DNA of 64,000 bases from an uncultured bacterium. Its GTDB lineage: Bacteria; Omnitrophota; Omnitrophia; Omnitrophales; JACQLI01. The stretch covers positions 27,860-91,859 of the forward strand of contig CAYJTB010000001.1 of NCBI GenBank assembly GCA_964372875.1. Direction: 5' to 3'. The position numbers and the translations under genes are program-made. The notes beneath the pieces are model-generated. The model searched no databases, had not been told where the DNA came from, and worked only from the letters and a program-made list of their open reading frames with translations. Position 1 is the stretch's first letter; every line of letters begins with the position of its first letter. Of the stretch, positions 3,281 to 30,312 are shown piece by piece.

Positions 3281-3394
3281 ATGAAAGTTAGAAGCTCAGT
3301 CAAAAAAATATGTGAGAAGTGCAGGGTCGTACGCCGCCGGGGGACCGTTTATATTATTTGCGAAAACCCCAAACACAAACAGCGGCAAGGATAA
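3281..3394 (+). CDS. rpmJ: 50S ribosomal protein L36
   Basis: Not in ORF track (<60 aa). ATG 3281: [37 protein letters not shown], canonical L36; sits between infA and rpsM. Confidence 0.9.
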
Positions 3395-3413
3395 GGAAGG
3401 ATAAAGAAAAACT

Positions 3414-9693: not shown

Positions 9694-10662
9694 ATGTTGC
9701 GTCGTCTTGTCCTTACCCTAGGTTTTCTTATTTTAGGCACCCTTCCTGCCTGGGCCCAGAAGCAGCTTGTCGATCGGGTGGCCGCTGTTATCAACGACGA
9801 AGCCATTACCCAAAGCGAGCTAGAGATGTATCTGCGTCCCATTTATGAAGGCCTGAAACAGCAATTTGAAGGCGAAGAATTAATGAACCGCTTGAATGAG
9901 ACCCGGCTTAAACTTCTAAATCAAATGATCGAAGACCGTCTTGTTTTTCAAAAAGCCAAGGCCATGGAACTCAAAGCGGAGGACAGTGAGATTGAAGAAG
10001 AAGTGGATAGGCTCAAAAAGCGCTACCCTTCTGAGGAGGCCTTGGAAAAAGAAATGACGAGTCAGGGTTACAGCATGTCAGGGCTTCGGGAAAATATACG
10101 CCGGCAAATCCTCATTCGTAAACTTCAAGACATCGAAGTAAAGTCCCGCGTTATCGTCTCACCCCGCGAGATTGAAGAATATTACAAGTCGCATATCGGT
10201 GAATTCGAACAAGAATTAAGAATGAAGCTGCTTTCCATCACCATTCGTAAAAGTAAAGAGGCCGAGGAAAAAGGACTTGTGGATGAAGCGGCGAAGAAAA
10301 AAATCGAATCCGTTGAATTCCGGATCCGGAGTGGCGAAGACTTTGAGGATTTGGCCCGTCAATTCTCTGAAGATGCCCATGCAGCCGAGGGCGGCCAAGT
10401 CGGCTGGGTCCGTAAAGGCGAATTTCTTCCCTCCATCGAAAAAGCCCTTCACGAATTAAACCAAGGAGCGATTTCCCCAGTGCTGGAAACCGCGGCGGGT
10501 TACCATCTTTTTAGGGTGGAGGAAAAAGATCCCGGGAAGGTGAGTTCGTTGGAGGAAGTACGGGAGAAAATTCGTTCGGTCCTATTCCGCGAAAAGGCTG
10601 AAAAGCGTTTCAAGGAGTGGATGGAAGAATTAAAGACCCAAGCCTACATCTCGGTCCGGTGA
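9694..10662 (+). CDS. SurA/PrsA-like periplasmic chaperone with parvulin PPIase domain
   Basis: Signal peptide MLRRLVLTLGFLILGTLPAWA; SurA_N-like helical region; PpiC domain (FEDLARQFSED......GG.VGWVRKGEF); ATG 9694 preferred to track start 9658. Confidence 0.75.
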   Translation: MLRRLVLTLGFLILGTLPAWAQKQLVDRVAAVINDEAITQSELEMYLRPIYEGLKQQFEGEELMNRLNETRLKLLNQMIEDRLVFQKAKAMELKAEDSEIEEEVDRLKKRYPSEEALEKEMTSQGYSMSGLRENIRRQILIRKLQDIEVKSRVIVSPREIEEYYKSHIGEFEQELRMKLLSITIRKSKEAEEKGLVDEAAKKKIESVEFRIRSGEDFEDLARQFSEDAHAAEGGQVGWVRKGEFLPSIEKALHELNQGAISPVLETAAGYHLFRVEEKDPGKVSSLEEVREKIRSVLFREKAEKRFKEWMEELKTQAYISVR

Positions 10663-15315: not shown

Positions 15316-18300
15316 ATGACCCTACGCGCGAAAAATTTTTATCTACGCACTGTCGCAGCTTTCACCGCAATCATTTTTTGCTGGAATAGCCTTGCTTGGC
15401 CGCTTCCCGAGGTTGCGGTTCCCCAGGCCGGCAAAACTTTCGATCTCATTCCAAAAGAACTCGGAACCGTCGATGAATACGAACTGCCGGACGCTTCACA
15501 TTCCGCACCCTTTGTCATACATATTCAAGATCTCCACGCAGCACCCGAAGCTCAAGAAAAAATCCTGGACATTCTTAAATTTTTACATTCAAAAAAGAAA
15601 CTTCTCGTAGCGGTCGAAGGAGCCGCCGGAACGCTTCATCCTGAGTATTTAGATTTCTTTCCGCAATACCCGCGTGTCACAAACGCACTCGTTCAAGATT
15701 TGGTAAGTGAGAGCATGCTTACAGGGCCGGCGTTATTCGCATGGGAGAGGTATGAGAGTAAGCCGTCATTGCACCCGTCATTGCGAGGACGTAAGTCCGA
15801 AGCAATCTCAAATCCTAGATTGCTTCGTCGGGCCTTTGGCCCTCCTCACAATGACAATAGCGTCCAATTCATAGGCGTCGAGACGCCGCGTCTTTATCGC
15901 GAAAACCTTAAAGCCTATCGCGATTTTTTCCAGGATGAAGAAAAAAATCAGCAGGATTTGAAATCTTTCCAAACCTCATTGGAATCGGCCCAAACGAAGA
16001 TTTTCAATCCTGATTTGAGGAAATTTGTCCAAGAAGTCCAGAGACGTAAAGATGGAAAGTTTCAATCGGGAAAGGCCTCGCCCGATCTTGCGGCTTACAT
16101 TCGCTTTCTCGCGGATTCAAGCCGAGATCATTTGGGAGTTGATCTAAGAGATAAATTCGAACAGATCCGTTTTCCCAATCTAACCCGCATTCTTTTCTTG
16201 ATGGAATTCGAATCAAAAATCACTGCTCACCAGCGCCGGGTTCTGCATTCTGAAATTGAATCCAAAAAACTTTTTGATGAAATCACACTTCTCGAAACAA
16301 GACTGCGGCAAATACTGGTTAAAAAGCCGGAAGAAACAAAACTTCTTGAGATCCTTGATGATTTCAAGTTGCTTGAGAAGTTATTCCATTTGGAACTGAC
16401 TCGCGAGGAATATTACCAAGTCGTCAACAGGGTTTTGGAAATCAATCCGTCGAATTTACATCAGCGTTTGGCAACCATTGCTGAGATTGCTTCGACCTCG
16501 TCTGAAATGTTGTCTCGCAATGACGCCGATTACGAAACTGCTCTGCGTTTTTACCGCTTAGCCATTCGCAGAGACAAAGCCCTTCTTGAAAATGCCTTGC
16601 GAGAGGCAGCTAAAACGGAGAACTCGTCTCAAGAAAAACCACTCATCGTTCTTGTTACCGGCGGTTTTCACACTTCAGGGGTGAGCGAGCTTCTCAAAGA
16701 AAAGAAAATTCCTTACGCCGTCGTCACGCCTGCCTTAGCAAAAACCAAAGCCAATCAAGACCAATATCACAAACTGATGTCCGGCAAAATGTTCGCCAAA
16801 GAAGCCTCAAGCGCTTCGCCCAAGAATAACAATCTGGTGTGGGCGCAGATTCTTACAGCAAGAGATCGGTACCCGAGCCTCAATTCCGACGAGGATCAGC
16901 AAAAAATATTTTCCCACGCGACTGAAAAGTCCGGCGAGTATTTTCGAAAATTCTATCCCCAAATCTCCGAACCCAAACTGCAAGAACTTTTATCTCGCCC
17001 CGCCGGATTCTTTTCGCAAATCTCCCGTTCCGAATTGCAAAGTAGGAGCCAGATTACGAATTCGGCCATCGATGGCCGAATTGGCGGGAAAAGGGTACTG
17101 CCTTCACGTTTTCCGCGCTCGGAAGTGCGGGCGGTAGAACAGCGATTAGAAGTCAGTGGTCAGAAGACAGAAGGCTGGAGTTCAAAGATAGGAAAAATTA
17201 TCAGGAATGGCAGCGATTTTGGACTATCGAGGGTTTTCCAGCGTAGTCAGGCGAAGAATTATCGAATTCCAAGCCGCTTAGAAAAATCTCGAGGTGAAAG
17301 AATAGAAATCTCTTTAAAGGTTTTCATCGATAGCAGATCGTGGTCTCCTGTGACAATGATCGTTGCTTTAGCTGAAAGAGCGCATTCCAGCACGGCATCA
17401 TCGTCCGGGTCACGGCAGGCCTTTACCTTTGTTTTAGGTTTGACTATCAAAGCTTTCATATGGATCAATGAAATCATTTCTTCAAGCATTTCAGGCGTGA
17501 TCCATTTCTTGAGTTTAGGTTTTTCCAGTGAGCGAAGAAAGTCTTCCAGTAAGGCCGGAGATAAAGCCGCAATGAACTTGTCTTCTTCCAGGGATTCCAG
17601 AATCGAACGGCAAACGCCCGGAAAGGCGAGTCCGCTCACCAGCACATTCACATCAAGAACGACCCGACGCATACCGTTCCTGCCGGGCTTGCTTGACCAG
17701 ATTCAGAAGCTCTTTTCGGCTGAGAGGGTGTTTCTTTCGGCTTTTATCAACTTTGCGGGTCAGAGAACGGAAGCGTTCTCCCCAGGTCTTATGTTCAAGA
17801 CGACGGATCAGGGTAATGCGGTCACGGGATTTCAATTGATTGATCATGCGCTCAATTTGTTGAATGTCTACTTCCACGGCAATCTTAGGCATAGGATTTT
17901 ATCCTCCTCTTCGAATCAGTATAATTTATCGGCCTTGGCGGATCAAAATCAAAACATTTCTTCCGTTAAGCCTTCTAAGCAAAGTTCGACAGAACCGAGC
18001 CGAAGGGCCGCTTCCGGCCCCGAGAGCCGTCAGTCTCCGATCCTAAGCGTCGATAGACCCGGAGGGGCCCGTGGGGAGGTGCGGGCAAAAGAACAGAGGT
18101 CAGAAGTCAGAGAGCAGAGGATAGAGGTCATAAGTCAGAGATCAGAAGGAAAAATTACTTCGAGTGGCGGCGATTTTGGTAGCGTTCGATCAGGTACATC
18201 ACGCCCCAGGCAAGAAATATCAAAACCAAAACAAGAGACACGGTTATCACGTTTTATTTACCCCTTTTCCGAATCTCTTGGGCAAGCCATCCAAGAAATA

Positions 18301-21300
18301 AGAATCATGATGGCTACAATTATAGAGAGAACAGCCTTGGCCTTCAATGAAGTTTTCCAAATGTTTTCGCTCACCACGAGGGCTGCTAATACAAGGCTCA
18401 CCGCCCTCATGATCCCATCAGCAAACAAATTCCGTCTTTTAGATGGAAAAAGGGTTTTCATCTCAATGCTTCAAGCGCCGCAACCTAACACAGGATTAAT
18501 TTTAAGTCAAATATTATTTTTAGAATATGAAATATCCCGCCGCTCGGAGGTGCGGGAATACATCTCGGATTGGACGGTCTCGACCTTGGAAACGAAACAG
18601 CCGGTTTTGGCGGCGGCATTTTCAACGGACGGGAAGATTTTGGCCGCGGGCGCAAGAAACAACGTTCATCTGACCAACGGAGACCTTCGGAAATGGTCCG
18701 TGGAATTTAGGGCCCACCGCAACGAGATTGCAAAACTTATTTCTTTTCAAAGAGGAAACAGGAATTTTTTCGCCACAGCCAGCAGAATCGGCTCGATCAG
18801 CCTATGGAATTCAAACGGCGGGCTGATCCGGCGGCTGGAGCAGCTTAATCCGGAGGATTTCCAACCTGTGTTAGGGTTATCCGTTTCTAAAAATGGAGAT
18901 TGGCTGGCAGCCACGGACATGGATGTAATGAAGATCTACGATCTTACGGGAATGAGTTCCCCTAAAACAATTCCCATCACGGATCAAAGTCGCAATCATT
19001 TCGTTCAATTTTCTCCCGATGGGACGAGCATCGCCTCCACTTATTACGGCGAAATCCGAATCGAGGATATCAAAACCGGAAAACTCCGCGCGAACCTTCA
19101 TCACGAAGCTTCTCTTAAGAAGTCCATGGATACGTCAGCCTTGGCCTTTTCCAAAGGCGATGATGTCGCCGCGGCCTCCACCGACGGAAAAATCAGGATC
19201 TGGAGATGGAAAGGGGAAAGGCAGCCTCAGGTTTTAGATTTTTTGTCACCAGCCCGCGAAGCAAGCCACCTCATCTTTTCACCTAATGGAAAACGTCTCG
19301 CCGCGTCTACGGCAGATCAGATCGAAATATGGAAACTTAATGGAAAAGTGTGGCGTCATGAAGAAACAATCTATCCGCATCTGGACGCCGTGACAGAAAT
19401 TTTATTTTCACCGGATGCAAAACGGTTTATGGCCGCAGGCATTTGGCACGGAAGCGGGAGAGTCCGAATTTGGTCGAAGGAAACGCCGGCAAGGGCCGAA
19501 GTGCGGACCGACGGCATCCCGACAACCTGGTTCCGGATTTTTAACAGGCTGGATAACCTTAACCGGGAAGTGTGGAAACAAAAAGATTTAGACATCATTG
19601 ACCTGACCAACCAATTGGAGAAAAAACTCATCAGCTTATTCGGTTCGCAGCTCCTTTATGGAATCTGGACTTGGAATACTTCAGTTCGGGAAGTACGGTT
19701 TGGCCTTAGGTCGGGGCCTTTAAGTTTTGAATTGACTGCCAACCCGCATCAGGAAATCCCGGAAAGAGAAATTAAAAGGGGATACACGGTAACAATGAAT
19801 GCGATGCTTACTTCCGCTGCGGAAAGTCAGCATGCAAAAAAATGGGGAGACAGCGAACCGGAAGAAAGGGGAGAGACTTTGCTTGAAATTCCTATTGCAG
19901 AGATCGACCGCTCCCAACCTGTTATCTATTTCGGCAGTTTCTATTTTGATACCGACAAGGAAAAGAAAGAAACGATCATCAAACAGGAAATCCTTTTCCT
20001 TCCCGGAGAGGAGAGAAATTATCAAATCTATATTTGGCATAACAACGCCCTTGAAAAAACTACCTTAGAAAAAGAAGGCGGCAGGACCTACGCGGTATGG
20101 AGAACGCCGGAAGCCGAACCTTCCCTTTCGTTTCAATATGTGGCACTGCATGATGCCCAAGGCAAAGACCTGGGCGAAATAAGCCGGCTCATTCTGAAAG
20201 CCGGAAACTCGGAAACTTACAGGAACAACCTTCAATTTCTTTACGGTCCTATTTGGAGAGACGAAACGTCGAGTTTTTCTCATGGTAGCAGAACTTCCGT
20301 AAAACCATCGGTTTTTGAAGACCTTATCTCTGCTGCGCCGGGCAAAAGGATCGCTGCGCTGCTGGGTCTAGCGATTGAATATCAATATGTCCCGGAAGGC
20401 CAAGTATTCAGCCGGATGCTGCTTACCGAATTGGAAAAATTGGAGGGCCTGCCGTACGGACGAATCGCAGCGCTTCGAGAAATTGCGGAAATGAGTCCCG
20501 AGGAAGCCCATGAAAGATTTAAAGATCCCTACGACCAGCCCAGCGCGATCCCGGCCGTCATGACCCTCGTGGCCAGCCTCGCCCCGCGTCTCCTTGAAAG
20601 AATGAAAAATTGGGATCAGGAATTTTATGAAGAGCTAAAAGGGGTCCTGCAAAAACCGGATCTCAAAACTTTATTCGAGGAAGGGGAGGTCAAATTTTAT
20701 GAGGCGGATCATCTCTGGGCCGCTTCAGATAACCGATCTTTTTTCCCTGGTGTTGTCGCCTTTTCAAGGAGTAAAGACCGGCAAATCATCGTCCCAATCT
20801 ATTTCGGCAACGAACCGAAAGATGAAGACGGCAAAGTCTGGTTTAAAATCTTGGACGCCACATCGCTTGGAATCGAGAATTCAAATGCCGCCACTTACCA
20901 AGTCTACGACCACATGCTCGGGGAATTTTATAAAACACTTCATTCAGGGGAAAAACTTTATCGAGAGGGTTGGAGCATCGGCATTCCGGTCGTCCCGGGA
21001 AAGCTGGACCGGGCCGGGTTTATCCAAAAGGGACGGCATGTTCAATTTTTGGAAATGCGAAGGACCCAATCTCTAACGACGGCGACCCGGATCGGCTTGC
21101 CGGAAAATCTTGTCAAGACACAAGGGATTCTTACGGATCTTTTGAGAGAAATGAGTAAACTCGAAATTTATTTTTTTATCAGTAAGACCGGTGCAACCGA
21201 TCGGCGCATGGTGCCTGTGGATAACGTTTATGAATTTTTTTCATCCTATGCGGGGAAAAAAGGCGAGCATTGGAATGAAATCGTAAGTGAGCCCCTTCAA

Positions 21301-24300
21301 TTGACCGTGAGCTCTCCGGGTTTTAAGCGCCAGACGCTTCGGCATGCGCTTCGGATGATGCAGGAAGCGCTTCAACTTACTTATTCTTTCCCCGGCACTT
21401 TGAAAGGAAATGACCCCCACCTTTCTTTTTATCACGATAAATTAATCGAAGAGACCCAACTTTTAAAAACATCGGATCAAACCGGAAAGTGGGCCCATGT
21501 CGAATTCGAAATCGCAAGCAGCCATTTTGAAATGCCGGATCATTGGGATCAGCCCGCCGAAAATTCGCTGCGTCAAAGAATTCAGGCGTTGCGCGAGGCA
21601 TTAGAAATTCCCTTTGTCCTTATGTTAAAAGCACCTTCCGGCGCCAAGGATCCTTATCACATCGAGCCGGTGGGAAACCTTCACCAGCGGCTTCCTTATT
21701 TTGTTCTCAAAGATGATTTCTTGAAAAATCCTCACGATCCGCGTTTTCCCTATTTTTCAAAAGGCGCTCAACTCAGTTTCGGACTTGAAGCACCCATGGA
21801 TTCGGCAAGATTGGAACAAGTTAGAAATATTCTGGTTGCAAGTCTTGAAGGCCGGATGTCGGCAGCTACCCTTAAGCGTGCCATTGAAGTGACGATGCAT
21901 CAGTGGCAAAGAGAAGACTCCTTCTTTTCCGAATCCCGCTCCGAGGCACGCCGTGTGCCTCGAACGCTTGCGGTGCACCCGGTGCGGTTGGCACCGGGTA
22001 CTCCGCTATACCCGGACCGGTCGGGTCCGGGTGTTGCGGTGCAGAGTCATTGGAACTCTGCCCGTTCAGAAGTTCGAACGGAGAAGTCAGAACGTCTAAC
22101 TCGTTCCAATGCAGGCGAATTACTCAAACCGCGCAGATACCTCAAGAATAAAATCTACGGAATTGGGCGCATTACCGCTGTGGAAGGAAAATTCGGGGGA
22201 AAAGATCCTCAAGGCTCCGTCGAGGTCGCTTTTTTAAATAAACACGGATTCGAAGAAACGAAAGAATTTTCCACCTGGTCACTTTTTCAATTGCCGGAGC
22301 AAAATCCCGAAGAAGCTTTCTTTTCCGTTACCAGGCAAGAAATCGAAGATTTCAAGAATCAAAAAAGACAAGGTCAAGCAGCTTATAAAGAAGAAATAGA
22401 TAAAAAACGCATAGCCCAACGGGAGGGCAGGCAATGGATGGAAGCACAAAGCCCCACATTTTCTCTCTACGATTCGCCTTTCAGCGCAAGAGCCGGAAGG
22501 CCCCTGGCCGCAGATTATAGAAAATTGATGCAAGGAATCCAAGACCGGGCACAGGGCGAGTATCACTTGGGCAGCGCCTCCATCGTGGAACGAAAAATTT
22601 TGTTTGAAATGCTGGGCACTCGCCTGATCCCTAAGACGAACCAATCGGAAACCACCCTTCGGATCAACTTAGGCCGGAGAAAAAAGGAATTCGCAGAGAA
22701 ATTGAAAACGATTTTAGATGAAACGGGCGGGCTAAGCGCCCGGGCCGTGAGCGAGGCGGAAGAGAAAATCATGTCTCCCAAAGATAAGTCCCGTGCGCTT
22801 TCAAGCGAATGGCTGAAATTCCGGGATCCTGTTACCGGTAAATTTGCGACCGAAAAAGATATCAAACGCTGGATCCAGAATGCCATTCCGATCGTTGAAA
22901 GAATCTTAGAATATGAAGTAAAACTTCTCAAATTAGAAAAACAAATTCAAATTCATCCGCGGCCTCTTGCGCGATCCGAAGTAAGGGCCGCTGAAAGTTC
23001 TCCCACAAAGAAGGTCGCATTTTTTAACCTCAGGACCGCGGACGATTCATCCATTGTTTTGCCGCAAAGGATGTCCTATCTTCCCGTCGAGCAGCGGTTG
23101 CCTGACTATAGCGCCTGGCGGATTCGAGTGGGAAGGGAATCGGGAAATTTGCACGCATTTTTGAGAGATGTCCTTGGCCCACGCTGGCATTGGAATGTCA
23201 AAGGAGAAACTAAGGCTTATTTTCTTTATAAAAGTCTCCCGAAGAAATTCAAACAATTTATTGGTAAACGCAAACCGCCGACAGGTTTTGATATGGAAGC
23301 GCTTGGACTTTTGGTGGTTAATCGAAGCGACATTTTTTACATTCCGATGGAAGAAACTGTGAATGAATCCGTGGTAACGGTGTTAGACAAAAATGACCGG
23401 GACGCGATCAATGAATTTATAAGCCATCATGCAATGATCCAAACGGTGCCGCAGAATATCCGGATCTTTCCTCCCGTTCGATATGAGAGCGTCAAGTTTG
23501 GATTGGGAGAGGATCCCGTGTCGAGTCCCAAGCCCGGCTCCATCGAAGTTGTTTATCACCCCAGGCTCATGGTCAATGATCTTGGCAAGGCAGATAAAGA
23601 AATTATTTTCGAAACCAGTTTCGACTTAACACAATTAAGGCCCCGGAAAAAGATTACGGCTGAACTTGAGGGAAGATTCTATCAAGAGTTAAAGTCCAGG
23701 CTGCGCAATACTTGGCAGATCCGCATAGGCAACCGGACCGTGGAAATGCCTCGGGCAAAAGATTTGCCGGCTAAAGTTCAAGACGTGGAAGAAATTTTGT
23801 TGCCGGGGAATAACCGTAAAACGGCGTCTTTACATTTCAATGATGCGGTTTCGTTCTATCTCGACGGAATTTTGATGCGCTCCAATGTGCCTGTACCCAA
23901 GGATATTCACGCCTGGATTTTTTGGAAAACACGGATTCGTTTTAACGATCAGGAAATCTCGGTTGAAACGACCGAAGGCAACAATGTATTAACTTATCGA
24001 ACAGATGAAACCGGTGAACATCTGCGGGTCAATGGCGAACCGACAGACAATAGTGTTTTGCAAAACATGATTCGTCAGATGGGCTCCGCTTTTTCAATCT
24101 TGGCCTTTCAGATGGCGCGCGATCCCGAACAAACGGATTATCTTCGCGAATCCGGCAAAGAAACGATTGATGATGAATTCGACCAATGGCTCGGCCGTTC
24201 TGAGGTGCGGGAAGAAGGACAGCCTGCACAAAATGGGAATGGCCACGCTATCCAGAAAAAGCAAAGAGGCCGCGGGTTCAGGACTAAAGAAGAAGCCTTG

Positions 24301-27300
24301 CAAGCCCTTGCCGAAAGACAGGCAAAAGGTCTTTCCAGTGATCCAAAATCCCTTCAAAGGCATTTAGCCGAAGGCGGCAACCCTACTTTGCTCACCTTCA
24401 TTTATCGATGGAATCAAAAGCACCCGGAAGAACCCATTGAAATGAAATTGTTGCCTACCCGAACCCACAAGTACGAATCCAAAGGAGAAATTATTGAAGC
24501 GCTGGAAAAAAGGCGGCTGGAAAAAGGAGAATCAGCCAATTATCGAATGCAATTACGCCTTCATATAGAAGAAGGCGGCGATCGTACATTGTATCAAGCG
24601 GTTCTGCGTTGGAATCATGATCATCCAGAGGATTTGATCAATCTTCCTTTGGATCCCCATGTGGCGCATGGTCAATTGGGAAAATACCAGACCAAACAAG
24701 ACGGCTTGAATACTTTGAGTGAAAGGAAAAAACAAGGTCTGGGAAATTCAACCAGCGATCTCAGGCAAACTAAATCGGATGGGGGGGATTGGCCTCTTCT
24801 TGTTTTTATTCGCCATTGGAATAAGAAGCATCCGAAGGATCGCATTGCGCTGGAGAATGCTGACCAAAACTTCAACCGCCTGAGTCCTGTTGCGGTCTGG
24901 CATTCCCAGACGCAGGATTTCAAGACGACCGATCAAAAAAGAACCGAATGGTGGCGGGCCTTGCAGGAAGAGGCGGATCACGAAGCTGGAAAAAGGCTGG
25001 TCGAGTCTTTTATTCCTTCAGTCAATGAGATTGCCCAAAGGTTAAGCGGGGGGAGAGATTCGCATTATGAAGCGGATTTAATCCAAAACGGAAATATGAT
25101 TGTCCTTGAGACGATCTATCCCGAGCGTAAAGAAGACCAGTGGAATCCGAGCCGCGGGGTTTCCATGACCGAATTTGTCGAGACCCGTTTAAAGAAAGAG
25201 ATGAGGCACCGGACATTGCAAGAGATACGTTCCAGCGGGAGATTTTCCATCGACGAGCCCTACCGTTTTTCCAAAGGCAGAGAAAAGGAATGGCAGGTTC
25301 CCAGTTATGACGCCCAACCGCAGGAAGTCCGAATTAACAACTTGGCTGATGAGAGGGACAAGCAATCGGGCCTTCCCGTGATTTTGTTTGAGGAAAAACA
25401 TCAAATCGCCCGCGAGATCGGAAAATGGTTAATCAAAAAAGGTTTTCTTAAACAGGTCAAGCAGGAAGGGATTCAGAACCTTGCCGTTTCAATGATCGGA
25501 AGCCTGGGAGTGCTCGGATCGGCAGTCAGAGATAAAAGCGATCTTAATTTGATGGTTGTTACCGACGCAAATGAGTCGCAGGCTGAAGCCCTCGCAGAAA
25601 AACTTGCGCAGTGGATCGGGGGCCGATATCACGAGCCGCAGGATTCGGAGCCTATCCGCATCTCCGTAGGAAAAGAAGGTGATTATGAGCAAGCCATAGC
25701 AGACGGAAACGGCTTCATTAGCTTACTTCAAAAACACAAGGTGGGCACAGACCCCATCAAAGGAATTGCAAGCGTTGAAGTGATTGGAATTCCCGACGAA
25801 GACAACTCGTTTTCCGAAGACTCTCTTACCCGGCAAAAAACGCGGGCGGCTTTTCACCTGGCCTTCCAAGATCCCCGGTTAGCCGAGCAGGCAATCAATG
25901 GGATCCTTGTCCTTGAAAATGCCAAGGGGGCCGCAGAGCGTCTTGCCCAAAAATTGCCGAGCGATCAGGAAAACCTTTTCGGTTATTATGAAAAATTTCT
26001 TGCCAAACAAGCCGCCAATCTTCGCAAGTTGCAGGAATCTTCCATTGACTCAAAAGCAAGGGCCGAGGTGCACCCGAATCCGACCGATTCGGGTACTCCT
26101 CAGTCCTCGCCCGATCAGGCGAGGGCCGAGGTGCGTTCTTCTTTGCCGGAGCAACGGGCGGAAAAGAAGTTAGAAACAAGAAAGTTGGAAATTGGAGCAG
26201 GAATCAGCGGGCTTAGCGGCCGCGTTGAAACATCTAATGGGCGTGTTTTTTCCGGAAGTGATCGATTGCCAATAAAGTCAACGAGATCGCCGCAAAAATC
26301 AGAATGGCAAGGACAGCCGTCATTTAGTCTTCCTCCTTTGAGGAGCTTGCCGCAAAAATCAAGCCCAAATAAAAGCATATCACGAGTCCTCCTAGAACGA
26401 CAAGCCGCCATTTCAGGGAGAGTTTTAGGAAAAGCTCTCCTCCCAGAACTCCTGCTAATAGGACCAAAATCACATGCTGAAACAACTTTGCCAGCCAGTC
26501 CCTCCGGGCCGTTGTCAGGAATATACTTTTCACAAAATAAAATATATAGCAATATCAATTCAGAGTTAAGCGATTTTTCCCGCTCCGATGGTTCGACAAG
26601 CTCACCATCGGTCCTGAGCAAGGCCGAAGGCCGCGTCGAACGCGCCGAGGTGCACCCGAATCCGACCGATTCGGGTACTCCTCCGCACTCACGCCCAACC
26701 GGCGTGAGTACTGAGGTGTCCCTGGCGGCGCCGCCAGGGGCTCCTCCGTCCTCGCCTGAACGGGCGAGGGCCGAGGTGCGGGCAAGCGTTGAAGAAATAA
26801 TCAGGAAGCAGATGCTTTCTGGAGATCTGAAGGCCTTTGAAAAGAATTTCGAATCTTACGACCGTGAAAAGGCCTTTGAACTTTTAAATAGCATTTCGAA
26901 AATTGCCAAGGAAATTTCAGAAAGGATCCGCAAAGGAGAAGAAGAACTGATGGTAGCTGCAAACAATGGCCAAAAAATGCAAGAAATCATTGACGCGGCT
27001 AAAATCTTGGAAAATTTCCCAAATGATAAACAAATACATGGTGTCCACCTATCAGCTATTATAAATTTACAGGAAATCTTCAATCTTACACCAAAAGCAT
27101 TGCCAAGATATCGCAATCTCTTAGAAGCTATTGTTAAACACGCGTCAAAAAAAGAACAACCTCACCAGGCAGCAGCTGAAATTATCGAGAGCTTTGAAGG
27201 AGAACAGCACGCTGATTCCCAACAAGATCAATTTCAAAGGAACGAAGCACTGGAATTTTTAACCCTAGATCTGGATGAAAAAGTTTTTAAAGAAACAGTA

Positions 27301-28719
27301 ATAAAAAATCATTTTCTGACCGCGCTTCATCATTTCATTTGGGAACACAGCGACTTTGAAGATGCGAAGAATTTAGCCAGAGAACTCGGTAACTTGAGCC
27401 TAATCAGTTCTTTGTTGGGTGAGCCCCTCAGTAAAAGACAGGCCGCTTTTTATAAGCGCGCACTTTTGAGCTCTGACCGCACGCAGCAGAAGATCGCGCT
27501 TGGCTTCTTCGAGACTTTCCCTGATCTTGAAAAAATGGACTGGAAAGAGGAAGTCGTTGGTAAACTTAAAGAAATCGTAATGGATGAATCCGAAGATTCT
27601 GAATTTAGAAAATATGCCTTTGAAGCGTTGACAAACAATATTCTTCTTATAGAGCCAGCCTTTTTGGCGCCTTATTTTAAAGAGCCGCGCAGCCAACGGT
27701 TTCGAATCATTTCTTCGGATAAAAAAGGCGCTCGGATTTTATTTTCGGTTCTTCAGAAGAAATTTGGGTCGCCTTTAAAGGACCCGCCCCTTTTTAAAAA
27801 AAGTTCCGAGTCCATCATTTTATCAGGAGAATTTACGACAGGTCTGAGAAATGCTGCCATGTTGATCCGATTTGTAAGGCAGGCCTACGGCCGGGAGATA
27901 TCCTTTGATGAGTCCCGCGGCTTGCTTAAAGAGATGAAAAAGAAACAAGACAGATCCCGGCGTTCCGAAATACGGAGTGAAAGCTTGGATTCGACGTGGG
28001 AGTTGAGGGAGGATGCGAACAAAGGAAAGCTTGCGGAACTTGGAAAACAATTTGCGCCGATGATTGAGAGTCTTTGGAAACGCTCCGAGGTCAGGCACAG
28101 GCTTGCGACGGACGGATTTTTGAATCTTTCAAAGCTGATTGAAATTCCCAAAGCCGAAGCGGCTGAACCTGCGATTGTAGCTGCGCTTTTGATCCGTGCA
28201 GAACAATCCCAAACCGGAACGCCGGCTTTGGACAAACATTTGCAAGTGTGGCAGTCGCGCATGGGAATCAGTTCGGTTGCTAAAGAAAATGAAGTCGTAA
28301 TCCTCTTAGAAGGTGCGGCGTTTAAACTCGGACTCTTGGCTGCGATCGACGGAATTAGCCCGGCAGCTCCGAAGATCGGCGTTGTGGCGCCCAAGGCTTA
28401 CCATTCTTTAGTGGAAGAAGTCAGAAGCGGTCTTAGAACCGGGCAAGAACTGATCGAAGGGGAGAAGCTTCCCGAAATTTTAAATCAAATTGCTCAGATG
28501 AAACAGAAGCCAAGCCGCTTAACGATTTGGGCTTCGAAGGAAGACTCGTTCTTAACAGCAGCGTTCATCAAACGTTTTCTTAAAGATCCAAACCTGAATG
28601 TAGAAGTAAAGACCGTGACGCAGCGCGATCTTGACCGCGCCAACGCGTCTCACCCCGGCTTTGCGGAACGTATCAAGAACTTCCTCGCCGCCGTCAAATC
28701 CCTCAGCATTTCCGCTTAA
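15316..28719 (+). CDS. giant modular ORF, 4,467 codons, function unknown
   Basis: Single uninterrupted frame; AGGAAAG RBS; N-terminal TM helix; protein-like composition in most modules; junction peptide conserved with synonymous codon variation. Caveat: three segments look non-coding on this strand. Confidence 0.7.
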   Translation: MTLRAKNFYLRTVAAFTAIIFCWNSLAWPLPEVAVPQAGKTFDLIPKELGTVDEYELPDASHSAPFVIHIQDLHAAPEAQEKILDILKFLHSKKKLLVAVEGAAGTLHPEYLDFFPQYPRVTNALVQDLVSESMLTGPALFAWERYESKPSLHPSLRGRKSEAISNPRLLRRAFGPPHNDNSVQFIGVETPRLYRENLKAYRDFFQDEEKNQQDLKSFQTSLESAQTKIFNPDLRKFVQEVQRRKDGKFQSGKASPDLAAYIRFLADSSRDHLGVDLRDKFEQIRFPNLTRILFLMEFESKITAHQRRVLHSEIESKKLFDEITLLETRLRQILVKKPEETKLLEILDDFKLLEKLFHLELTREEYYQVVNRVLEINPSNLHQRLATIAEIASTSSEMLSRNDADYETALRFYRLAIRRDKALLENALREAAKTENSSQEKPLIVLVTGGFHTSGVSELLKEKKIPYAVVTPALAKTKANQDQYHKLMSGKMFAKEASSASPKNNNLVWAQILTARDRYPSLNSDEDQQKIFSHATEKSGEYFRKFYPQISEPKLQELLSRPAGFFSQISRSELQSRSQITNSAIDGRIGGKRVLPSRFPRSEVRAVEQRLEVSGQKTEGWSSKIGKIIRNGSDFGLSRVFQRSQAKNYRIPSRLEKSRGERIEISLKVFIDSRSWSPVTMIVALAERAHSSTASSSGSRQAFTFVLGLTIKAFIWINEIISSSISGVIHFLSLGFSSERRKSSSKAGDKAAMNLSSSRDSRIERQTPGKASPLTSTFTSRTTRRIPFLPGLLDQIQKLFSAERVFLSAFINFAGQRTEAFSPGLMFKTTDQGNAVTGFQLIDHALNLLNVYFHGNLRHRILSSSSNQYNLSALADQNQNISSVKPSKQSSTEPSRRAASGPESRQSPILSVDRPGGARGEVRAKEQRSEVREQRIEVISQRSEGKITSSGGDFGSVRSGTSRPRQEISKPKQETRLSRFIYPFSESLGQAIQEIRIMMATIIERTALAFNEVFQMFSLTTRAANTRLTALMIPSANKFRLLDGKRVFISMLQAPQPNTGLILSQILFLEYEISRRSEVREYISDWTVSTLETKQPVLAAAFSTDGKILAAGARNNVHLTNGDLRKWSVEFRAHRNEIAKLISFQRGNRNFFATASRIGSISLWNSNGGLIRRLEQLNPEDFQPVLGLSVSKNGDWLAATDMDVMKIYDLTGMSSPKTIPITDQSRNHFVQFSPDGTSIASTYYGEIRIEDIKTGKLRANLHHEASLKKSMDTSALAFSKGDDVAAASTDGKIRIWRWKGERQPQVLDFLSPAREASHLIFSPNGKRLAASTADQIEIWKLNGKVWRHEETIYPHLDAVTEILFSPDAKRFMAAGIWHGSGRVRIWSKETPARAEVRTDGIPTTWFRIFNRLDNLNREVWKQKDLDIIDLTNQLEKKLISLFGSQLLYGIWTWNTSVREVRFGLRSGPLSFELTANPHQEIPEREIKRGYTVTMNAMLTSAAESQHAKKWGDSEPEERGETLLEIPIAEIDRSQPVIYFGSFYFDTDKEKKETIIKQEILFLPGEERNYQIYIWHNNALEKTTLEKEGGRTYAVWRTPEAEPSLSFQYVALHDAQGKDLGEISRLILKAGNSETYRNNLQFLYGPIWRDETSSFSHGSRTSVKPSVFEDLISAAPGKRIAALLGLAIEYQYVPEGQVFSRMLLTELEKLEGLPYGRIAALREIAEMSPEEAHERFKDPYDQPSAIPAVMTLVASLAPRLLERMKNWDQEFYEELKGVLQKPDLKTLFEEGEVKFYEADHLWAASDNRSFFPGVVAFSRSKDRQIIVPIYFGNEPKDEDGKVWFKILDATSLGIENSNAATYQVYDHMLGEFYKTLHSGEKLYREGWSIGIPVVPGKLDRAGFIQKGRHVQFLEMRRTQSLTTATRIGLPENLVKTQGILTDLLREMSKLEIYFFISKTGATDRRMVPVDNVYEFFSSYAGKKGEHWNEIVSEPLQLTVSSPGFKRQTLRHALRMMQEALQLTYSFPGTLKGNDPHLSFYHDKLIEETQLLKTSDQTGKWAHVEFEIASSHFEMPDHWDQPAENSLRQRIQALREALEIPFVLMLKAPSGAKDPYHIEPVGNLHQRLPYFVLKDDFLKNPHDPRFPYFSKGAQLSFGLEAPMDSARLEQVRNILVASLEGRMSAATLKRAIEVTMHQWQREDSFFSESRSEARRVPRTLAVHPVRLAPGTPLYPDRSGPGVAVQSHWNSARSEVRTEKSERLTRSNAGELLKPRRYLKNKIYGIGRITAVEGKFGGKDPQGSVEVAFLNKHGFEETKEFSTWSLFQLPEQNPEEAFFSVTRQEIEDFKNQKRQGQAAYKEEIDKKRIAQREGRQWMEAQSPTFSLYDSPFSARAGRPLAADYRKLMQGIQDRAQGEYHLGSASIVERKILFEMLGTRLIPKTNQSETTLRINLGRRKKEFAEKLKTILDETGGLSARAVSEAEEKIMSPKDKSRALSSEWLKFRDPVTGKFATEKDIKRWIQNAIPIVERILEYEVKLLKLEKQIQIHPRPLARSEVRAAESSPTKKVAFFNLRTADDSSIVLPQRMSYLPVEQRLPDYSAWRIRVGRESGNLHAFLRDVLGPRWHWNVKGETKAYFLYKSLPKKFKQFIGKRKPPTGFDMEALGLLVVNRSDIFYIPMEETVNESVVTVLDKNDRDAINEFISHHAMIQTVPQNIRIFPPVRYESVKFGLGEDPVSSPKPGSIEVVYHPRLMVNDLGKADKEIIFETSFDLTQLRPRKKITAELEGRFYQELKSRLRNTWQIRIGNRTVEMPRAKDLPAKVQDVEEILLPGNNRKTASLHFNDAVSFYLDGILMRSNVPVPKDIHAWIFWKTRIRFNDQEISVETTEGNNVLTYRTDETGEHLRVNGEPTDNSVLQNMIRQMGSAFSILAFQMARDPEQTDYLRESGKETIDDEFDQWLGRSEVREEGQPAQNGNGHAIQKKQRGRGFRTKEEALQALAERQAKGLSSDPKSLQRHLAEGGNPTLLTFIYRWNQKHPEEPIEMKLLPTRTHKYESKGEIIEALEKRRLEKGESANYRMQLRLHIEEGGDRTLYQAVLRWNHDHPEDLINLPLDPHVAHGQLGKYQTKQDGLNTLSERKKQGLGNSTSDLRQTKSDGGDWPLLVFIRHWNKKHPKDRIALENADQNFNRLSPVAVWHSQTQDFKTTDQKRTEWWRALQEEADHEAGKRLVESFIPSVNEIAQRLSGGRDSHYEADLIQNGNMIVLETIYPERKEDQWNPSRGVSMTEFVETRLKKEMRHRTLQEIRSSGRFSIDEPYRFSKGREKEWQVPSYDAQPQEVRINNLADERDKQSGLPVILFEEKHQIAREIGKWLIKKGFLKQVKQEGIQNLAVSMIGSLGVLGSAVRDKSDLNLMVVTDANESQAEALAEKLAQWIGGRYHEPQDSEPIRISVGKEGDYEQAIADGNGFISLLQKHKVGTDPIKGIASVEVIGIPDEDNSFSEDSLTRQKTRAAFHLAFQDPRLAEQAINGILVLENAKGAAERLAQKLPSDQENLFGYYEKFLAKQAANLRKLQESSIDSKARAEVHPNPTDSGTPQSSPDQARAEVRSSLPEQRAEKKLETRKLEIGAGISGLSGRVETSNGRVFSGSDRLPIKSTRSPQKSEWQGQPSFSLPPLRSLPQKSSPNKSISRVLLERQAAISGRVLGKALLPELLLIGPKSHAETTLPASPSGPLSGIYFSQNKIYSNINSELSDFSRSDGSTSSPSVLSKAEGRVERAEVHPNPTDSGTPPHSRPTGVSTEVSLAAPPGAPPSSPERARAEVRASVEEIIRKQMLSGDLKAFEKNFESYDREKAFELLNSISKIAKEISERIRKGEEELMVAANNGQKMQEIIDAAKILENFPNDKQIHGVHLSAIINLQEIFNLTPKALPRYRNLLEAIVKHASKKEQPHQAAAEIIESFEGEQHADSQQDQFQRNEALEFLTLDLDEKVFKETVIKNHFLTALHHFIWEHSDFEDAKNLARELGNLSLISSLLGEPLSKRQAAFYKRALLSSDRTQQKIALGFFETFPDLEKMDWKEEVVGKLKEIVMDESEDSEFRKYAFEALTNNILLIEPAFLAPYFKEPRSQRFRIISSDKKGARILFSVLQKKFGSPLKDPPLFKKSSESIILSGEFTTGLRNAAMLIRFVRQAYGREISFDESRGLLKEMKKKQDRSRRSEIRSESLDSTWELREDANKGKLAELGKQFAPMIESLWKRSEVRHRLATDGFLNLSKLIEIPKAEAAEPAIVAALLIRAEQSQTGTPALDKHLQVWQSRMGISSVAKENEVVILLEGAAFKLGLLAAIDGISPAAPKIGVVAPKAYHSLVEEVRSGLRTGQELIEGEKLPEILNQIAQMKQKPSRLTIWASKEDSFLTAAFIKRFLKDPNLNVEVKTVTQRDLDRANASHPGFAERIKNFLAAVKSLSISA
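15765..15855. mobile_element. MITE-like element inserted in-frame in the giant ORF
   Basis: GTCATTGCACCC GTCATTGCGAGG...AAGCAATC..GATTGCTTCG...CCTCACAATGAC; translated SLRGRKSEAISNPRLLRRAFGPPHND. Confidence 0.6.
16475..16524. repeat. possible degenerate/short copy of the same MITE family
   Basis: CCATTGCTGAGATTGCTTCG...TCTCGCAATGAC, translated ...MLSRND; left terminus is weak. Confidence 0.3.
17059..17082. repeat. 24-bp perfect palindrome
   Basis: AATTCGGCCATC|GATGGCCGAATT, 34 nt upstream of the first RSEVR junction. Confidence 0.9.
17259..17672 (-). CDS. PIN-domain ribonuclease toxin (PIN_3/VapC-like)
   Basis: VVLDVNVLVSGL..., CRDPDDDAVLECALSAKATIIVTGDHDLL: acidic PIN residues in the canonical order; 20-nt overlap with the upstream small gene. 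Confidence 0.9.
   Translation of the reverse strand: MRRVVLDVNVLVSGLAFPGVCRSILESLEEDKFIAALSPALLEDFLRSLEKPKLKKWITPEMLEEMISLIHMKALIVKPKTKVKACRDPDDDAVLECALSAKATIIVTGDHDLLSMKTFKEISILSPRDFSKRLGIR
17653..17892 (-). CDS. putative antitoxin of the PIN toxin
   Basis: 79-aa basic protein directly upstream of and overlapping the PIN gene; strong RBS; family not recognised. Confidence 0.6.
   Translation of the reverse strand: MPKIAVEVDIQQIERMINQLKSRDRITLIRRLEHKTWGERFRSLTRKVDKSRKKHPLSRKELLNLVKQARQERYASGRS
18070..18556 (-). mobile_element. antisense cassette 2: junction, 3'-flank repeat, small membrane protein
   Basis: Same build as cassette 1; bounded by junctions at 18070 and 18541; minus-strand TTGACT -35-like box upstream of ATG 18461. 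Confidence 0.4.
18258..18461 (-). CDS. small two-TM membrane protein (paralog of 26324..26533)
   Basis: 67 aa with two hydrophobic helices. Shares MK(T/S)(L/I)F...RR..(F/L)A...LVL.A.V...SLK pattern with the other cassette protein. Confidence 0.5.
   Translation of the reverse strand: MKTLFPSKRRNLFADGIMRAVSLVLAALVVSENIWKTSLKAKAVLSIIVAIMILISWMACPRDSEKG
18556..19491 (+). other. WD40-type beta-propeller module of the giant ORF
   Basis: Repeated units such as FSTDGKILAAG, ATASRIGSISLWN, FSPDGTSIAS, ASTDGKIRIWRW, FSPNGKRLAAS..IEIWK, FSPDAKRFMAAG..RVRIWS. Confidence 0.8.
21937..22080. repeat. in-ORF array of GC-rich hairpins at a module junction (copy a)
   Basis: CGAGGCAC/GTGCCTCG; CCCGGTGC/GCACCGGG; ACCCGGACC/GGTCCGGGT; CAGAGT/ACTCTG; CCGTTC/GAACGG; flanked by RSEAR and RSEVR codons. 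Confidence 0.65.
24274..24857 (+). repeat. three tandem ~65-aa protein repeats inside the giant ORF
   Basis: GFRTKEEALQALAERQAKGL...GGNPTLLTFIYRWNQKHPEEPI / KYESKGEIIEALEKRRLEKG...GGDRTLYQAVLRWNHDHPEDLI / KYQTKQDGLNTLSERKKQGL...GGDWPLLVFIRHWNKKHPKDRI. Confidence 0.6.
25060..25230 (+). other. sigma-70 region-2-like stretch in the giant ORF
   Basis: EADLIQNGNMIVLETIYPERKEDQWNPSRGVSMTEFVETRLKKEM resembles DLIQEGNIGLMKAV..FDP.RG..FSTYA.WWIR. Confidence 0.35.
25483..25575 (+). other. nucleotidyltransferase (Pol-beta/MNT-like) motif in the giant ORF
   Basis: SMIGSLGVLGSAVRDKSDLNLMVVTD matches the G-S-x(n)-G...D-x-D minimal NTase pattern. Confidence 0.45.
26059..26136. repeat. in-ORF hairpin element (copy b)
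   Basis: AGGGCCGAGGTGCAC CCGAATC cgacc GATTCGG GTACTCCT...CCTCGCC cgatca GGCGAGG GCCGAGGTGCGT; 39 bp (26062-26100) are repeated perfectly at 26644-26682. Confidence 0.7.
26324..26533 (-). CDS. small two-TM membrane protein (paralog of 18258..18461)
   Basis: 69 aa, GTG start, two hydrophobic helices, acidic C-terminus (SSSKEED); A/T-rich TATATT box upstream on the minus strand. Confidence 0.5.
   Translation of the reverse strand: MKSIFLTTARRDWLAKLFQHVILVLLAGVLGGELFLKLSLKWRLVVLGGLVICFYLGLIFAASSSKEED
26641..26781. repeat. in-ORF hairpin element (copy c, expanded to four hairpins)
   Basis: CCCGAATC/GATTCGGG; ACTCACGCC/GGCGTGAGT; CCCTGGCGG/CCGCCAGGG; CCTCGCC/GGCGAGG. Confidence 0.7.
26782..27960 (+). 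other. alpha-helical (HEAT/ARM-like) module of the giant ORF
   Basis: Helix-rich composition with a recurrent ~40-aa helical periodicity; judged by eye only. Confidence 0.3.
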
Positions 28720-28807: not shown

Positions 28808-29017
28808 ATGACACGAGTGACAGTTTCCCCAAAATATCAAATCGTGATCCCTAAAGAAATTAGGGAAAAGTTGGATATTCGGTGCGGACAGAAGATGGCC
28901 GTCGTAACAAGAGGGGAATGGATTATGCTGGTTCCCGATCTGCCTTTGAAACATTATCGGGGGTTTTTGAAAGGTGTGAGTTCAGAGGGGGTTCGTGACC
29001 GAAGGGACCGGTTTTGA
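28808..29017 (+). CDS. vapB: AbrB/SpoVT-type antitoxin
   Basis: MTRVTVSPKYQIVIPKEIREKLDIRCGQKMAVV: looped-hinge-helix AbrB fold motif; 4-nt overlap with the PIN gene. Confidence 0.85.
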   Translation: MTRVTVSPKYQIVIPKEIREKLDIRCGQKMAVVTRGEWIMLVPDLPLKHYRGFLKGVSSEGVRDRRDRF

Positions 29018-29397: not shown

Positions 29398-30312
29398 TTG
29401 AGTTCCACGCAAATCGCCCTTCTTAAAAAATACGGTCTTGAAGTCCGTGGATTTCGCGGCCAGCATCTTTTGGTCGATCCCAACATTCAACGAAAGATCG
29501 TGGAGTTAGTCGCTCCCAAACCAGGTGAGTGGATCGTTGAGATCGGGCCGGGCCTGGGTGCGCTCACGACTGAGATTTTGGCGGACGGCGCGTCGGTCCT
29601 TGCGATTGAAAAAGACAAACGCTTCTGCGAGATCCTGGAAGGGGAGTTCGGCATCGATTACAAAGGAAAACTCCTGATCGAAAATGCGGATGTTCTCAAG
29701 ACGGATTTAAAAAAATTACTCAAATCGTCGTTACGAGCCCCAAAGAGGCGAAGCAACCTAAGCACGAAGACTGCTTCGGCGCCGCCTCGCAATGACCGGA
29801 TCAAAGTCATCTCGAACCTTCCTTACTATATAACTTCACCTGTGCTTTTCTGGCTGATCTCCAATCGTGCATCTGTGGAAAAAGCGGTTTTGATGATGCA
29901 GGCTGAAGTCGCGGACCGTTTGCTCGCCCAGCCGGGAGATAAAGATTATAGCCGGCTTACCTTGGGAGTCCGGTATTACGCCGAAGTCCACCGTGCTTTT
30001 GAAGTTTCCCGCAATTGTTTTACTCCGAGGCCCGATGTCGATTCAACGGTCGTGACGATCGATTTTCACCCGCCGTCCGCATTCCCAAAAGGAATCGACG
30101 AGGCATTTCTTTTCCATCTCATTCAAGTAGCCTTCGGTGCCCGGCGAAAAACCCTACTCAATCGTCTTACGCAAGATTCAAAAGTAGGTCGCCCTCGTTC
30201 CCAGCTCTTAGAAATTTTTCACAAGCTCGGCATCCCCGAAATGGCCCGCGCTGAAGAGCTCCTCCTCAAAGACTTCATCTCATTGACCGAATTTCTTCAA
30301 CCTAAACATTAA
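29398..30312 (+). CDS. rsmA: 16S rRNA (adenine1518/1519-N6)-dimethyltransferase, carrying an in-frame repeat insertion
   Basis: GQHLLVDPNI, VEIGPGLGALT SAM motif, SNLPYYITSP; TTG start. Confidence 0.9.
   Translation: MSSTQIALLKKYGLEVRGFRGQHLLVDPNIQRKIVELVAPKPGEWIVEIGPGLGALTTEILADGASVLAIEKDKRFCEILEGEFGIDYKGKLLIENADVLKTDLKKLLKSSLRAPKRRSNLSTKTASAPPRNDRIKVISNLPYYITSPVLFWLISNRASVEKAVLMMQAEVADRLLAQPGDKDYSRLTLGVRYYAEVHRAFEVSRNCFTPRPDVDSTVVTIDFHPPSAFPKGIDEAFLFHLIQVAFGARRKTLLNRLTQDSKVGRPRSQLLEIFHKLGIPEMARAEELLLKDFISLTEFLQPKH
29727..29796. mobile_element. MITE-like element in-frame in rsmA
   Basis: GTCGTTACGAG...GAAGCAACC..CTGCTTCGG...CCTCGCAATGAC, translated SSLRAPKRRSNLSTKTASAPPRND, placed just before the NLPY motif. 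Confidence 0.6.

Follow-up and report, generated by a model that had tools for sequence, protein, structure and literature searches.

The closest described relatives of the element reported here are the repetitive extragenic palindromic (REP) sequences and bacterial interspersed mosaic elements (BIMEs) of Enterobacteria and Pseudomonas, which are extragenic, dispersed and of high copy number, and are mobilised by HUH transposases of the REP-associated tyrosine transposase (RAYT) type. Rickettsia palindromic elements (RPEs), which Ogata and colleagues reportedly described in 2000, are said to be in-frame selfish palindromes in protein-coding genes. We analysed a 64-kb stretch of DNA from an uncultured bacterium of the Omnitrophota (GenBank assembly GCA_964372875.1), called the window below, in which a giant open reading frame (ORF) carries three arrays (a, b and c) of GC-rich hairpins. 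We confirm that these hairpins are real, structure-conserved DNA repeats, built on a short peptide separator, five residues long (R-S/A-E-V-R), that recurs along the ORF.

Giant or "multi-enzyme" ORFs of the Omnitrophota have been described (bioRxiv 10.64898/2026.06.07.730766; 10.1101/2023.11.21.568195; PMC10066038). What leads these bacteria to assemble unrelated enzyme domains into ORFs of thousands to >100,000 residues is an open question, as is cleavage of the products; one of these papers states that the cleavage points are unknown. Term searches of the same papers turned up neither a separator motif nor any hairpins, palindromes or antisense genes within ORFs. Literature searches on the separator strings and on Omnitrophota polyproteins returned nothing relevant, and we found no published description of the separator system and its hairpin module in the giant genes of this phylum.

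Hairpin arrays within the giant reading frame

All three hairpin sites lie within the giant ORF, on the plus strand (Table 1). RNA folding against 200 dinucleotide shuffles gave five hairpins at site a (21934-22080; minimum free energy -84.1 kcal/mol, z -6.3), two at site b (26050-26145; -44.2 kcal/mol, z -3.8) and four at site c (26636-26785; -97.3 kcal/mol, z -7.8), and the minus strand folds about equally well. The initial annotation of this DNA had placed two to five hairpins at each of three junctions inside the ORF, and the folding scores bear this out; the stems, given there as 6-9 bp, measure 7-11 bp.

The first hairpin of the module, unit H, has the form GAGG-T-GCAC-(7-bp variable stem)-(5-nt loop)-(stem')-GTAC-T-CCTC and is followed by one to three more GC-rich hairpins (H2, Z, X, Q). 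The pattern GTGCACCCG-N(8-24)-CGGGTAC has exactly three matches in the window (21973, 26068 and 26650), against 0.01 expected, and the stems first quoted for the unit are correct. The inner stem is CCCGGTGC/GCACCGGG at site a and CCCGAATC/GATTCGGG at sites b and c. Four paired positions had been said to change together between these forms; three inner pairs do so, and the fourth compensatory change lies in the outer stem, where GCGG..CCGC stands against GAGG..CCTC. The corresponding peptides, HPVRLAPGTP (a) and HPNPTDSGTP (b and c), were reported accurately.

The module is inserted in frame after the fourth codon of the separator and ahead of the fifth. Each array opens as R[SA]EV-H, with the separator's GAGGTGC continued by AC and not by GG, and closes with a regenerated RAEVR, the 3' end of the module being GCCGAGGTGCGG. 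The first hairpin takes its outer 5' arm from the separator's own E-V codons (GAGGTGC), whose GAGG pairs with the downstream CCTC. The inserts measure 63, 126 and 126 nt, all multiples of 3, hold no stop in the ORF frame and are bounded by a direct repeat of 10-16 nt. In array a the last unit, h5, takes in the RSEVR codons themselves (cgt tca gaa gtt cga), and in array b the two RAEV copies are spaced 63 nt apart. Read in frame, an array is a P/S/T/G-rich spacer (62-72% P/S/T/G/A/R).

Arrays b and c flank a cassette of minus-strand genes (26137-26640) and match each other as direct repeats, with 94% and 90% identity over 47 and 40 nt. Copy b consists of H+X and copy c of H+H2+Z+X, so that the earlier account of c as b with two added hairpins has the composition right. 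The direction of change is more likely the reverse, with b a deletion derivative and not c an expansion, because the four-unit form is common to a related locus, L005.

A covariance model of the unit (R1) found no further copy in the window, and all copies are within the giant-ORF frame. Rfam at gathering thresholds matched only a tRNA in the window (42910-42980) and has no family for the hairpins; at E<=1 it added only a sub-threshold miRNA match. No T-run lies 3' of the arrays on the plus strand, and the only terminator-like match is a weak one on the minus strand (26077-26063). An intrinsic terminator was rejected as an identity for the hairpins, since no U-tract follows them.

Covariation and conservation in related loci

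An exact-pattern scan yielded five true relatives, L005 (an uncultured bacterium) and L012, L014, L018 and L020 (all from sample Ga0247727), each of which belongs to a giant open frame that has 2-17 separators. The related loci with hairpin units come from three other genomes or metagenomes. Single pattern matches in L002-L004, L006-L011, L013, L015-L017, L019 and L021 were set aside as consistent with chance; six of these (L013, L015-L017, L019 and L021), when tested with the covariance model, gave E above 0.2 or no score. Viral contigs held no match to the pattern, and nine 17-mer matches in them were due to chance, none with covariance-model support. Every match confirmed by the model lies in a giant ORF, on the ORF sense strand, and those with translated context begin at an R-x-E-[VL]-R separator.

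We aligned eight H+X arrays by position and not by pairing, without filtering. In this alignment 97.5% of the cells pair and double-sided changes occur in 9 of the 25 pairs (26 cells), with no pair of the H helix varying on one side only. None of 500 shuffles reached this level, and slid controls gave at most 2 pairs. Larger sets agree: 11 of 14 pairs covary among eleven H/H2 units, and 12 of 14 among 17 units from four lineages, one of them distant, with 96.6% of cells paired. These two sets were gathered with patterns that fix the conserved boxes (one set allowing at most one core mismatch), so the unfiltered eight-array alignment is the cleaner test. The stem peptides vary freely (HPNPTDSGTP, HPVRLAPGTP, HPARSGPGTP, HSAPTGLSTP) while pairing stays at 97-99%. 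Selection on nucleic-acid structure inside an open frame, as first proposed, is thus upheld by the compensatory changes.

Several features other than Watson-Crick pairs are conserved as well, namely a T.T mismatch, a C.A mismatch within the GCAC/GTAC box and a T.G wobble in unit X. The GCAC...GTAC box with its fixed C.A mismatch is kept in the eight unfiltered arrays, which include one GCAC variant of the 3' box; a further variant, outside that alignment, carries GTACAC. On the sense strand the loop reads CGACC, CAACC or CGATC, mostly in H units, or the reverse complements GGTCG, GGTTG or GATCG, mostly in X units. A conserved G.T wobble likewise stands on opposite strands in H and X, and the flanks of the two units are not recognisably the same sequence. 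Variants of H and X recombine combinatorially across arrays. Arrays 1 and 2 of L005 show one difference over ~146 nt, and at junction 1 an array is present in L014 and absent from the window.

The module is also found in a distant lineage, L022 (GCA_020632475.1, protein P0147), whose N-terminal domain is 23-37% identical to that of the window. Its separator is SELR (GAGCTGC), and homologous 37-nt units follow the "SEL", often as 60-nt tandem arrays, which the model built on the SEVR lineage finds at E ~4e-7. The outer arms are GAGC/GCTC in place of GAGG/CCTC: the change V(GTG)->L(CTG) in the motif is matched 30 nt downstream by P(CCT)->A(GCT). In the box C-G stands in place of an A-T pair, and the C.A mismatch persists in the L022 units compared, which were selected with a pattern that partly fixes the box. 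The peptide SGT[PA]Q is partly conserved between the lineages. Because a lineage with so divergent an N-domain keeps homologous, compensated units, the module is an old, integral accessory of the separator and no recent accident.

The peptide separator

The motif R-[SAG]-E-[VI]-[RH] occurs 14 times in the giant ORF, always in the same frame; of these, 12 form a complete separator, and arrays b and c each open with one of the other two, as RAEV-H. One further match only turned up in a six-frame scan of the window. The codons vary widely (R as CGT, CGC, CGA, AGG or AGA; S as TCC, TCG, TCA or TCT; E as GAA or GAG; V as GTG, GTC, GTT or GTA), and four copies depart from the DNA consensus at 3 or more of 11 bases with the motif still encoded. 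As the codons diverge and the motif is kept, selection acts on the peptide and, by implication, the frame is translated. The motif codons also favour GAG-GTG-CGG (6/12, 7/11 and 7/12, against an ORF background of 27%, 26% and 19%), and this bias points to a constraint at the nucleotide level on top of that on the peptide.

Hairpins are present at 3 of ~13 junctions only. We rejected the idea that every separator is structured, since the plain separators of the giant ORF are unfolded (z -1.0 to +1.2), and the hairpins are therefore an add-on and not part of every separator. In L012 (minus strand, 830-930) and L020 (minus strand, 2067-2140, 3351-3425 and ~10290-10380) we observed another recurrent junction unit, RSEAR-EQSKGPGPVTPAGTTKINR-RSEV, whose AT-rich TTAATAG core puts tandem stops in the +2 frame.

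Antisense cassettes within the giant frame

The codon-usage score of the giant-ORF frame is coding-like except over ~17000-18500 and ~26100-26650, where it is about zero and the minus frames win. The first segment holds a PIN-domain toxin gene with a VapB15-like antitoxin gene, and the second, between arrays b and c, a pair of small genes for membrane or hydrophobic peptides; the 69-aa product of the second segment matched no family. In L005 an antisense RelE-like toxin-antitoxin pair lies beside an array, as read from the ORF translation and not from a family search, and the giant frame is stop-free across the entire 5.6-kb contig.

In the segments with antisense cassettes the giant frame contains no stop in 313, 143, 168, 279 and 208 codons, against 5-20 stops in each of the other two plus frames there and 2.7-5.1 stops per 100 codons in the antisense frames of ordinary window genes. 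Stop-free read-through is therefore selected. The PIN protein contains no Tyr and no Gln, and stops are thus avoided in the overlapping plus frame. In L014, L020 and L022 we found no real antisense genes, only junk-like open frames, so that embedded antisense cassettes are not universal.

The PIN/VapB cassette is flanked by a direct repeat of ~107 nt, made of separator and linker, which does not form hairpins (z -0.9 and +0.2). Both copies contain a purine-rich period of 14 nt (18090-18145 and 17136-17177; CAGAGGTCAGAAGT-like, read EQRSEVREQRIEVISQRSEG).

The giant-gene family and its surroundings

Word-seeded searches with the N-terminal domain (aa 1-560) returned few homologs. A profile search of 1.84 billion representatives reached 9200 clusters, and many proteins in the best 150 are of 2000-7244 aa with the domain at the N-terminus. 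The profile matched no PDB sequence; fold comparison alone was informative and placed the domain in a fold class shared with the MARTX effector RRSP and the Tiki/TraB peptidases. Neither the giant protein nor a neighbouring gene had an exact match on record. A word-seeded search with aa 1394-3582 of the giant ORF gave one match only, P0001, and Pfam and NCBIfam scans of the ORF segments found WD40 and otherwise only weak sigma/Arm matches.

All ten family members that were fetched carry lineage-specific separators (RSEVR, RAEVR, RPEVR, RSELR, KSELR, RSEMR), 4-23 in each against ~1-2 expected, and their C-termini all read ...[S/A]A. Unrelated domains make up the middle cassettes: WD40 in the window, and PP2C, 2-hydroxyacid dehydrogenase, HEAT, HTH and a polyA-polymerase head in the relatives. 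One named member was found, HOW58973.1 in GenBank, which is 90% identical to P0026 and is annotated [quoted passage not shown], a name taken from a single cassette. In P0117, known here from the protein only, tandem units of ~18 aa (..FESPRDHDDP[RH]SELR) precede the separators. The C-terminal domain is too divergent in alignment to be interpreted beyond its ...[S/A]A end. The C-termini of the window ORF (28700-28716) and of P0001, P0009, P0011, P0017, P0021, P0026, P0040, P0084, P0112, P0117 and P0147 follow ...[S/T/A/Q/R]-[S/A]-A-COOH, with the forms SISA, RTAA, SASA, SVSA, SQSA, KQAA, MAAA, SSAA, SAAA and ARSA. Judged by sequence, such an end resembles an ssrA-like or tail-specific-protease-type C-terminal signal.

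The window is otherwise an ordinary bacterial chromosome (secY, rpoA, mfd-like, surA and pdxA, followed by the giant ORF and then by ksgA, gatA/B and tsaD). Between 10672 and 30312 the usual surA-pdxA-ksgA neighbourhood is split by ~17.6 kb that contain a GT2 gene (minus strand), a PEGA gene (minus strand), the giant ORF and a toxin-antitoxin locus. The last is marked by an AbrB/MazE-like antitoxin ORF directly 3' of the giant-ORF stop (28808-29017, plus strand), so that a second toxin-antitoxin locus abuts the giant gene.

Other palindromes also sit in reading frames of this lineage. A second family, GTCATTGCGAGG...CCTCGCAATGAC, of ~80-155 nt, lies in frame inside the N-domain of the giant ORF, ksgA, tsaD and the ORF at 35673-36692; at the position of the giant-ORF copy the L014 homolog has a gap of 29 aa, an empty site. 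A third family (GGAATCCAG-type, read ..PAGIQNLDSG..) flanks cassettes in L005 (1-60 and ~1960-2040) and is also found inside the giant family members P0084 and P0147.

Table 1. Positions in the window of the hairpin arrays, the giant ORF, its separators and the associated features
Feature	Position	Strand	Remarks
Array a	21937..22080	+	RSEAR to RSEVR; covariance model R1, 68.6 bits
Units of array a	h1 21942-21962; H 21970-22006; h3 22008-22034; Q 22041-22061; h5 22063-22080		
Array b	26059..26136	+	RAEV-H; H 26065-26101; X 26103-26126; regenerated RAEVR 26122-26136
Array c	26641..26781	+	RAEV-H start; units H+H2+Z+X
Giant ORF	15316..28719	+	4467 aa, stop-free for 13.4 kb; conserved N- and C-terminal domains around variable middle cassettes
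Conserved N-terminal domain	15316..16995	+	Transmembrane/signal helix, then ChaN/EreA/TraB/Tiki/RRSP-like fold
Separator RSEVR	17116..17130	+	cgc tcg gaa gtg cgg; motif scan
Separators RGEVR (18070) and RSEVR (18097)	18070..18111	+	RSEVR as agg tca gaa gtc aga; motif scan
Separator RSEVR	18541..18555	+	Ahead of WD40 cassette; motif scan
Separator RAEVR	19492..19506	+	Motif scan
Separator RSEVR	22972..22986	+	cga tcc gaa gta agg; motif scan
Separator RSEVR	24196..24210	+	Motif scan
Separator RSEIR	27961..27975	+	Motif scan
Separator RSEVR	28081..28095	+	Ahead of conserved C-terminal domain ending ...SISA; motif scan
PIN-domain toxin gene	17259..17672	-	TIGR00305, E 4.7e-24, 84.9 bits (cutoff 29); minus frame has best codon score
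VapB15-like antitoxin gene	17653..17892	-	Family search; sigma-70-like promoter 17946-17918 (-)
~107-nt direct repeat around PIN/VapB	17116..17222 (left); 18070-18179 (right)	+ (left)	Families D6 and D11; 76-82% identity
69-aa two-transmembrane peptide gene	26324..26533	-	Between arrays b and c; promoter-like site 26569-26541 (-)
29-aa hydrophobic peptide gene	26234..26323	-	Coupled to the 69-aa gene (TAAATG); AGGAGG ribosome-binding site
GTCATTGCGAGG...CCTCGCAATGAC family	15777-15855, 16483-16524, 29721-29796, 34946-35038, 36144-36299		In-frame copies

Discussion

We favour, with confidence and reserve in equal measure, a reading of the hairpins as a separator-anchored, optional DNA palindrome module of REP/BIME-like kind; recombination would copy, expand and delete it, and in the protein it would be a harmless linker. 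Hairpins or cruciforms would form on either DNA strand, with units present in both orientations. Recombination or slippage through the repeated separator GCCGAGGTGC would then copy, expand or delete arrays between separators, and exchange through a repeated separator keeps orientation and reading frame automatically. Cassettes newly inserted or duplicated, the minus-strand operon at 26137-26640 among them, might be left with arrays on both sides as direct repeats, and arrays might be removed cleanly, back to a plain RSEVR. We infer action at the level of DNA because the sense strand carries the loop motif in both complementary forms, because the G.T wobble of H and X lies on opposite strands, as in BIMEs, because both strands fold equally well and because most junctions work without hairpins. 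The tolerance of this lineage for other in-frame palindromes counts in favour of the same reading, as a lineage habit. The module may be merely tolerated, or it may be co-opted for cassette shuffling.

Several observations weigh against this reading. No RAYT (PF01797-like), integrase, transposase or recombinase gene is among the ORFs scanned in the 64-kb window, and hence no mobilising enzyme is known for the module. The REP-like or recombination-site-like character that the initial annotation had suggested is still the best description, in this conditional form. The architecture is shared by lineages with proteins ~25-45% identical, and conservation at that distance argues for a function, which could equally be at the level of RNA; a neutral or selfish repeat would arguably not persist so, unless repeatedly transferred. 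Every copy points the same way with respect to the ORF, as a function in sense RNA predicts. The repeats around the PIN/VapB cassette form no hairpins, so that cassette insertion does not depend on them. Counts of G.U and A.C pairs are too small to tell RNA from DNA. Finally, translation of the giant ORF is itself predicted from its sequence, as is any processing at RSEVR.

If the hairpins acted instead in RNA (the giant sense mRNA, antisense transcripts or the two together), they might pause ribosomes before each complete separator, protect or segment a transcript of >13 kb, mask the Shine-Dalgarno-like GAGGUG, or terminate or insulate transcription of the minus-strand cassettes. The great stability of the arrays (-44 to -97 kcal/mol each), their uniform orientation relative to the ORF, the deep conservation of the architecture with covariation, the sequestration of GAGG in the outer stem and the bias of the motif codons to GAG-GTG-CGG above background would all agree with such a role, as would the position of arrays b and c on either side of a minus-strand operon with its weak terminator-like site (26077-26063). 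We nevertheless think it rather unlikely: the hairpins stand at a minority of junctions and the rest are unstructured, loop motif and wobble appear on the sense strand in either orientation, which would not be expected if the signal were a strand-specific one in RNA, the hairpins have neither a U-tract after them nor a match in Rfam, and sense-strand G.U, on those small counts, is no higher than A.C.

Another alternative, a dedicated recombination site in the manner of an integron attC, would have a putative recombinase recognise the folded hairpin with its unpaired bases and move cassettes at separators. It would account for the conserved GCAC/GTAC box and the fixed C.A and T.T mismatches beside freely covarying stems, for arrays that flank cassettes as direct repeats and for middle cassettes that vary greatly between conserved ends; toxin-antitoxin cassettes, present here, also occur in chromosomal integrons. 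Yet no integrase is encoded in the 64-kb window, the attC R/L boxes (GTTRRRY) are absent on direct reading, most cassette boundaries are free of hairpins, and PIN/VapB is flanked by unstructured 107-nt repeats. With no recombinase, no attC boxes and hairpins missing from most boundaries, we regard such a system as quite improbable. Least probable by far is that the hairpins are a by-product of selection for a P/S/T/G linker, or chance GC-rich palindromes, with no constraint on the nucleic acid. The linker-like composition of the array peptides and the partial retention of SGT[PA]Q between lineages fit this idea, but stem residues change freely while pairing holds, no shuffle reached the observed covariation, and three units stand where 0.01 are expected. 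The covariation counts effectively refute it.

A broader proposal, fairly improbable as it stands, is that giant multi-enzyme ORFs are "translated cassette arrays", in which the separator would be both a recombination and a proteolytic site, the hairpins its DNA-structured form, and the modules could be gained, duplicated or lost in frame and released as separate proteins. The N-terminal Tiki/TraB/RRSP-like domain might do the processing, and R-x-E-V-R is an attractive candidate cleavage site for it. Foreign minus-strand toxin-antitoxin operons would be included and would have to stay stop-free, and junk read-through peptides could be excised between two separators. Cleavage there would explain why separators bracket the junk read-through segments.

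The separator and the hairpin module give testable coordinates for possible protein processing sites and DNA rearrangement sites. In the module a single short sequence is clearly under two constraints, one on the peptide and one on the base-paired nucleic acid, and genuine antisense genes survive within a reading frame that is kept stop-free. The arrangement may show how giant genes gain and lose modules.

As to known systems, the giant ORF shares with the "multi-enzyme" giant proteins of the Omnitrophota the many unrelated Pfam domains that tile one very long ORF. It recalls MARTX toxins and viral polyproteins in its conserved ends, variable unrelated domains and short recurring linkers, and its N-domain is of the same fold class as the effector RRSP; unlike these, it has no CPD-like domain here, and proteolysis at R-x-E-V-R would be conjecture. 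The hairpins resemble attC sites in the conservation of structure over sequence, in their conserved unpaired bases and in lying at the boundaries of exchangeable cassettes, toxin-antitoxin cassettes included. They differ from them in having no R''/L''/L'/R' boxes (RYYYAAC ... GTTRRRY), the conserved ends being GAGGTGCAC / GTACTCCTC and CCTCG / CGAGG; no intI, attI or Pc is nearby, the whole array is one translated ORF, and most cassette boundaries have no hairpins (arrays at 3 of ~13 junctions).

The closest likenesses are with RPEs and REP/BIME elements. Like RPEs, the module is a palindromic repeat inserted in frame, in lengths that are multiples of 3, and is translated as an extra peptide segment that does not destroy the host protein. 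RPEs are scattered over many unrelated genes, whereas the module is confined to the giant ORFs of one family, targets one conserved separator that it regenerates at its 3' end, forms tandem arrays and is conserved across deeply diverged lineages; the second palindrome family (GTCATTGCGAGG...CCTCGCAATGAC) does show an RPE-like spread over unrelated genes. With REP/BIME elements the module has in common imperfect GC-rich palindromes of 25-40 nt whose stem foot bears a short conserved box, variable and covarying stems, clustering in arrays, here of units that may alternate in orientation, and plausible activity as DNA hairpins. It departs from them in being intragenic, with every copy inside the giant-ORF frame, in frame and in one orientation, in being restricted to a single peptide-motif site in a single gene family, and in that the motif's own codons form its outer stem arm. 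The hairpins are best filed as a site-specific, deeply conserved variant of in-frame REP/RPE-like palindromes.

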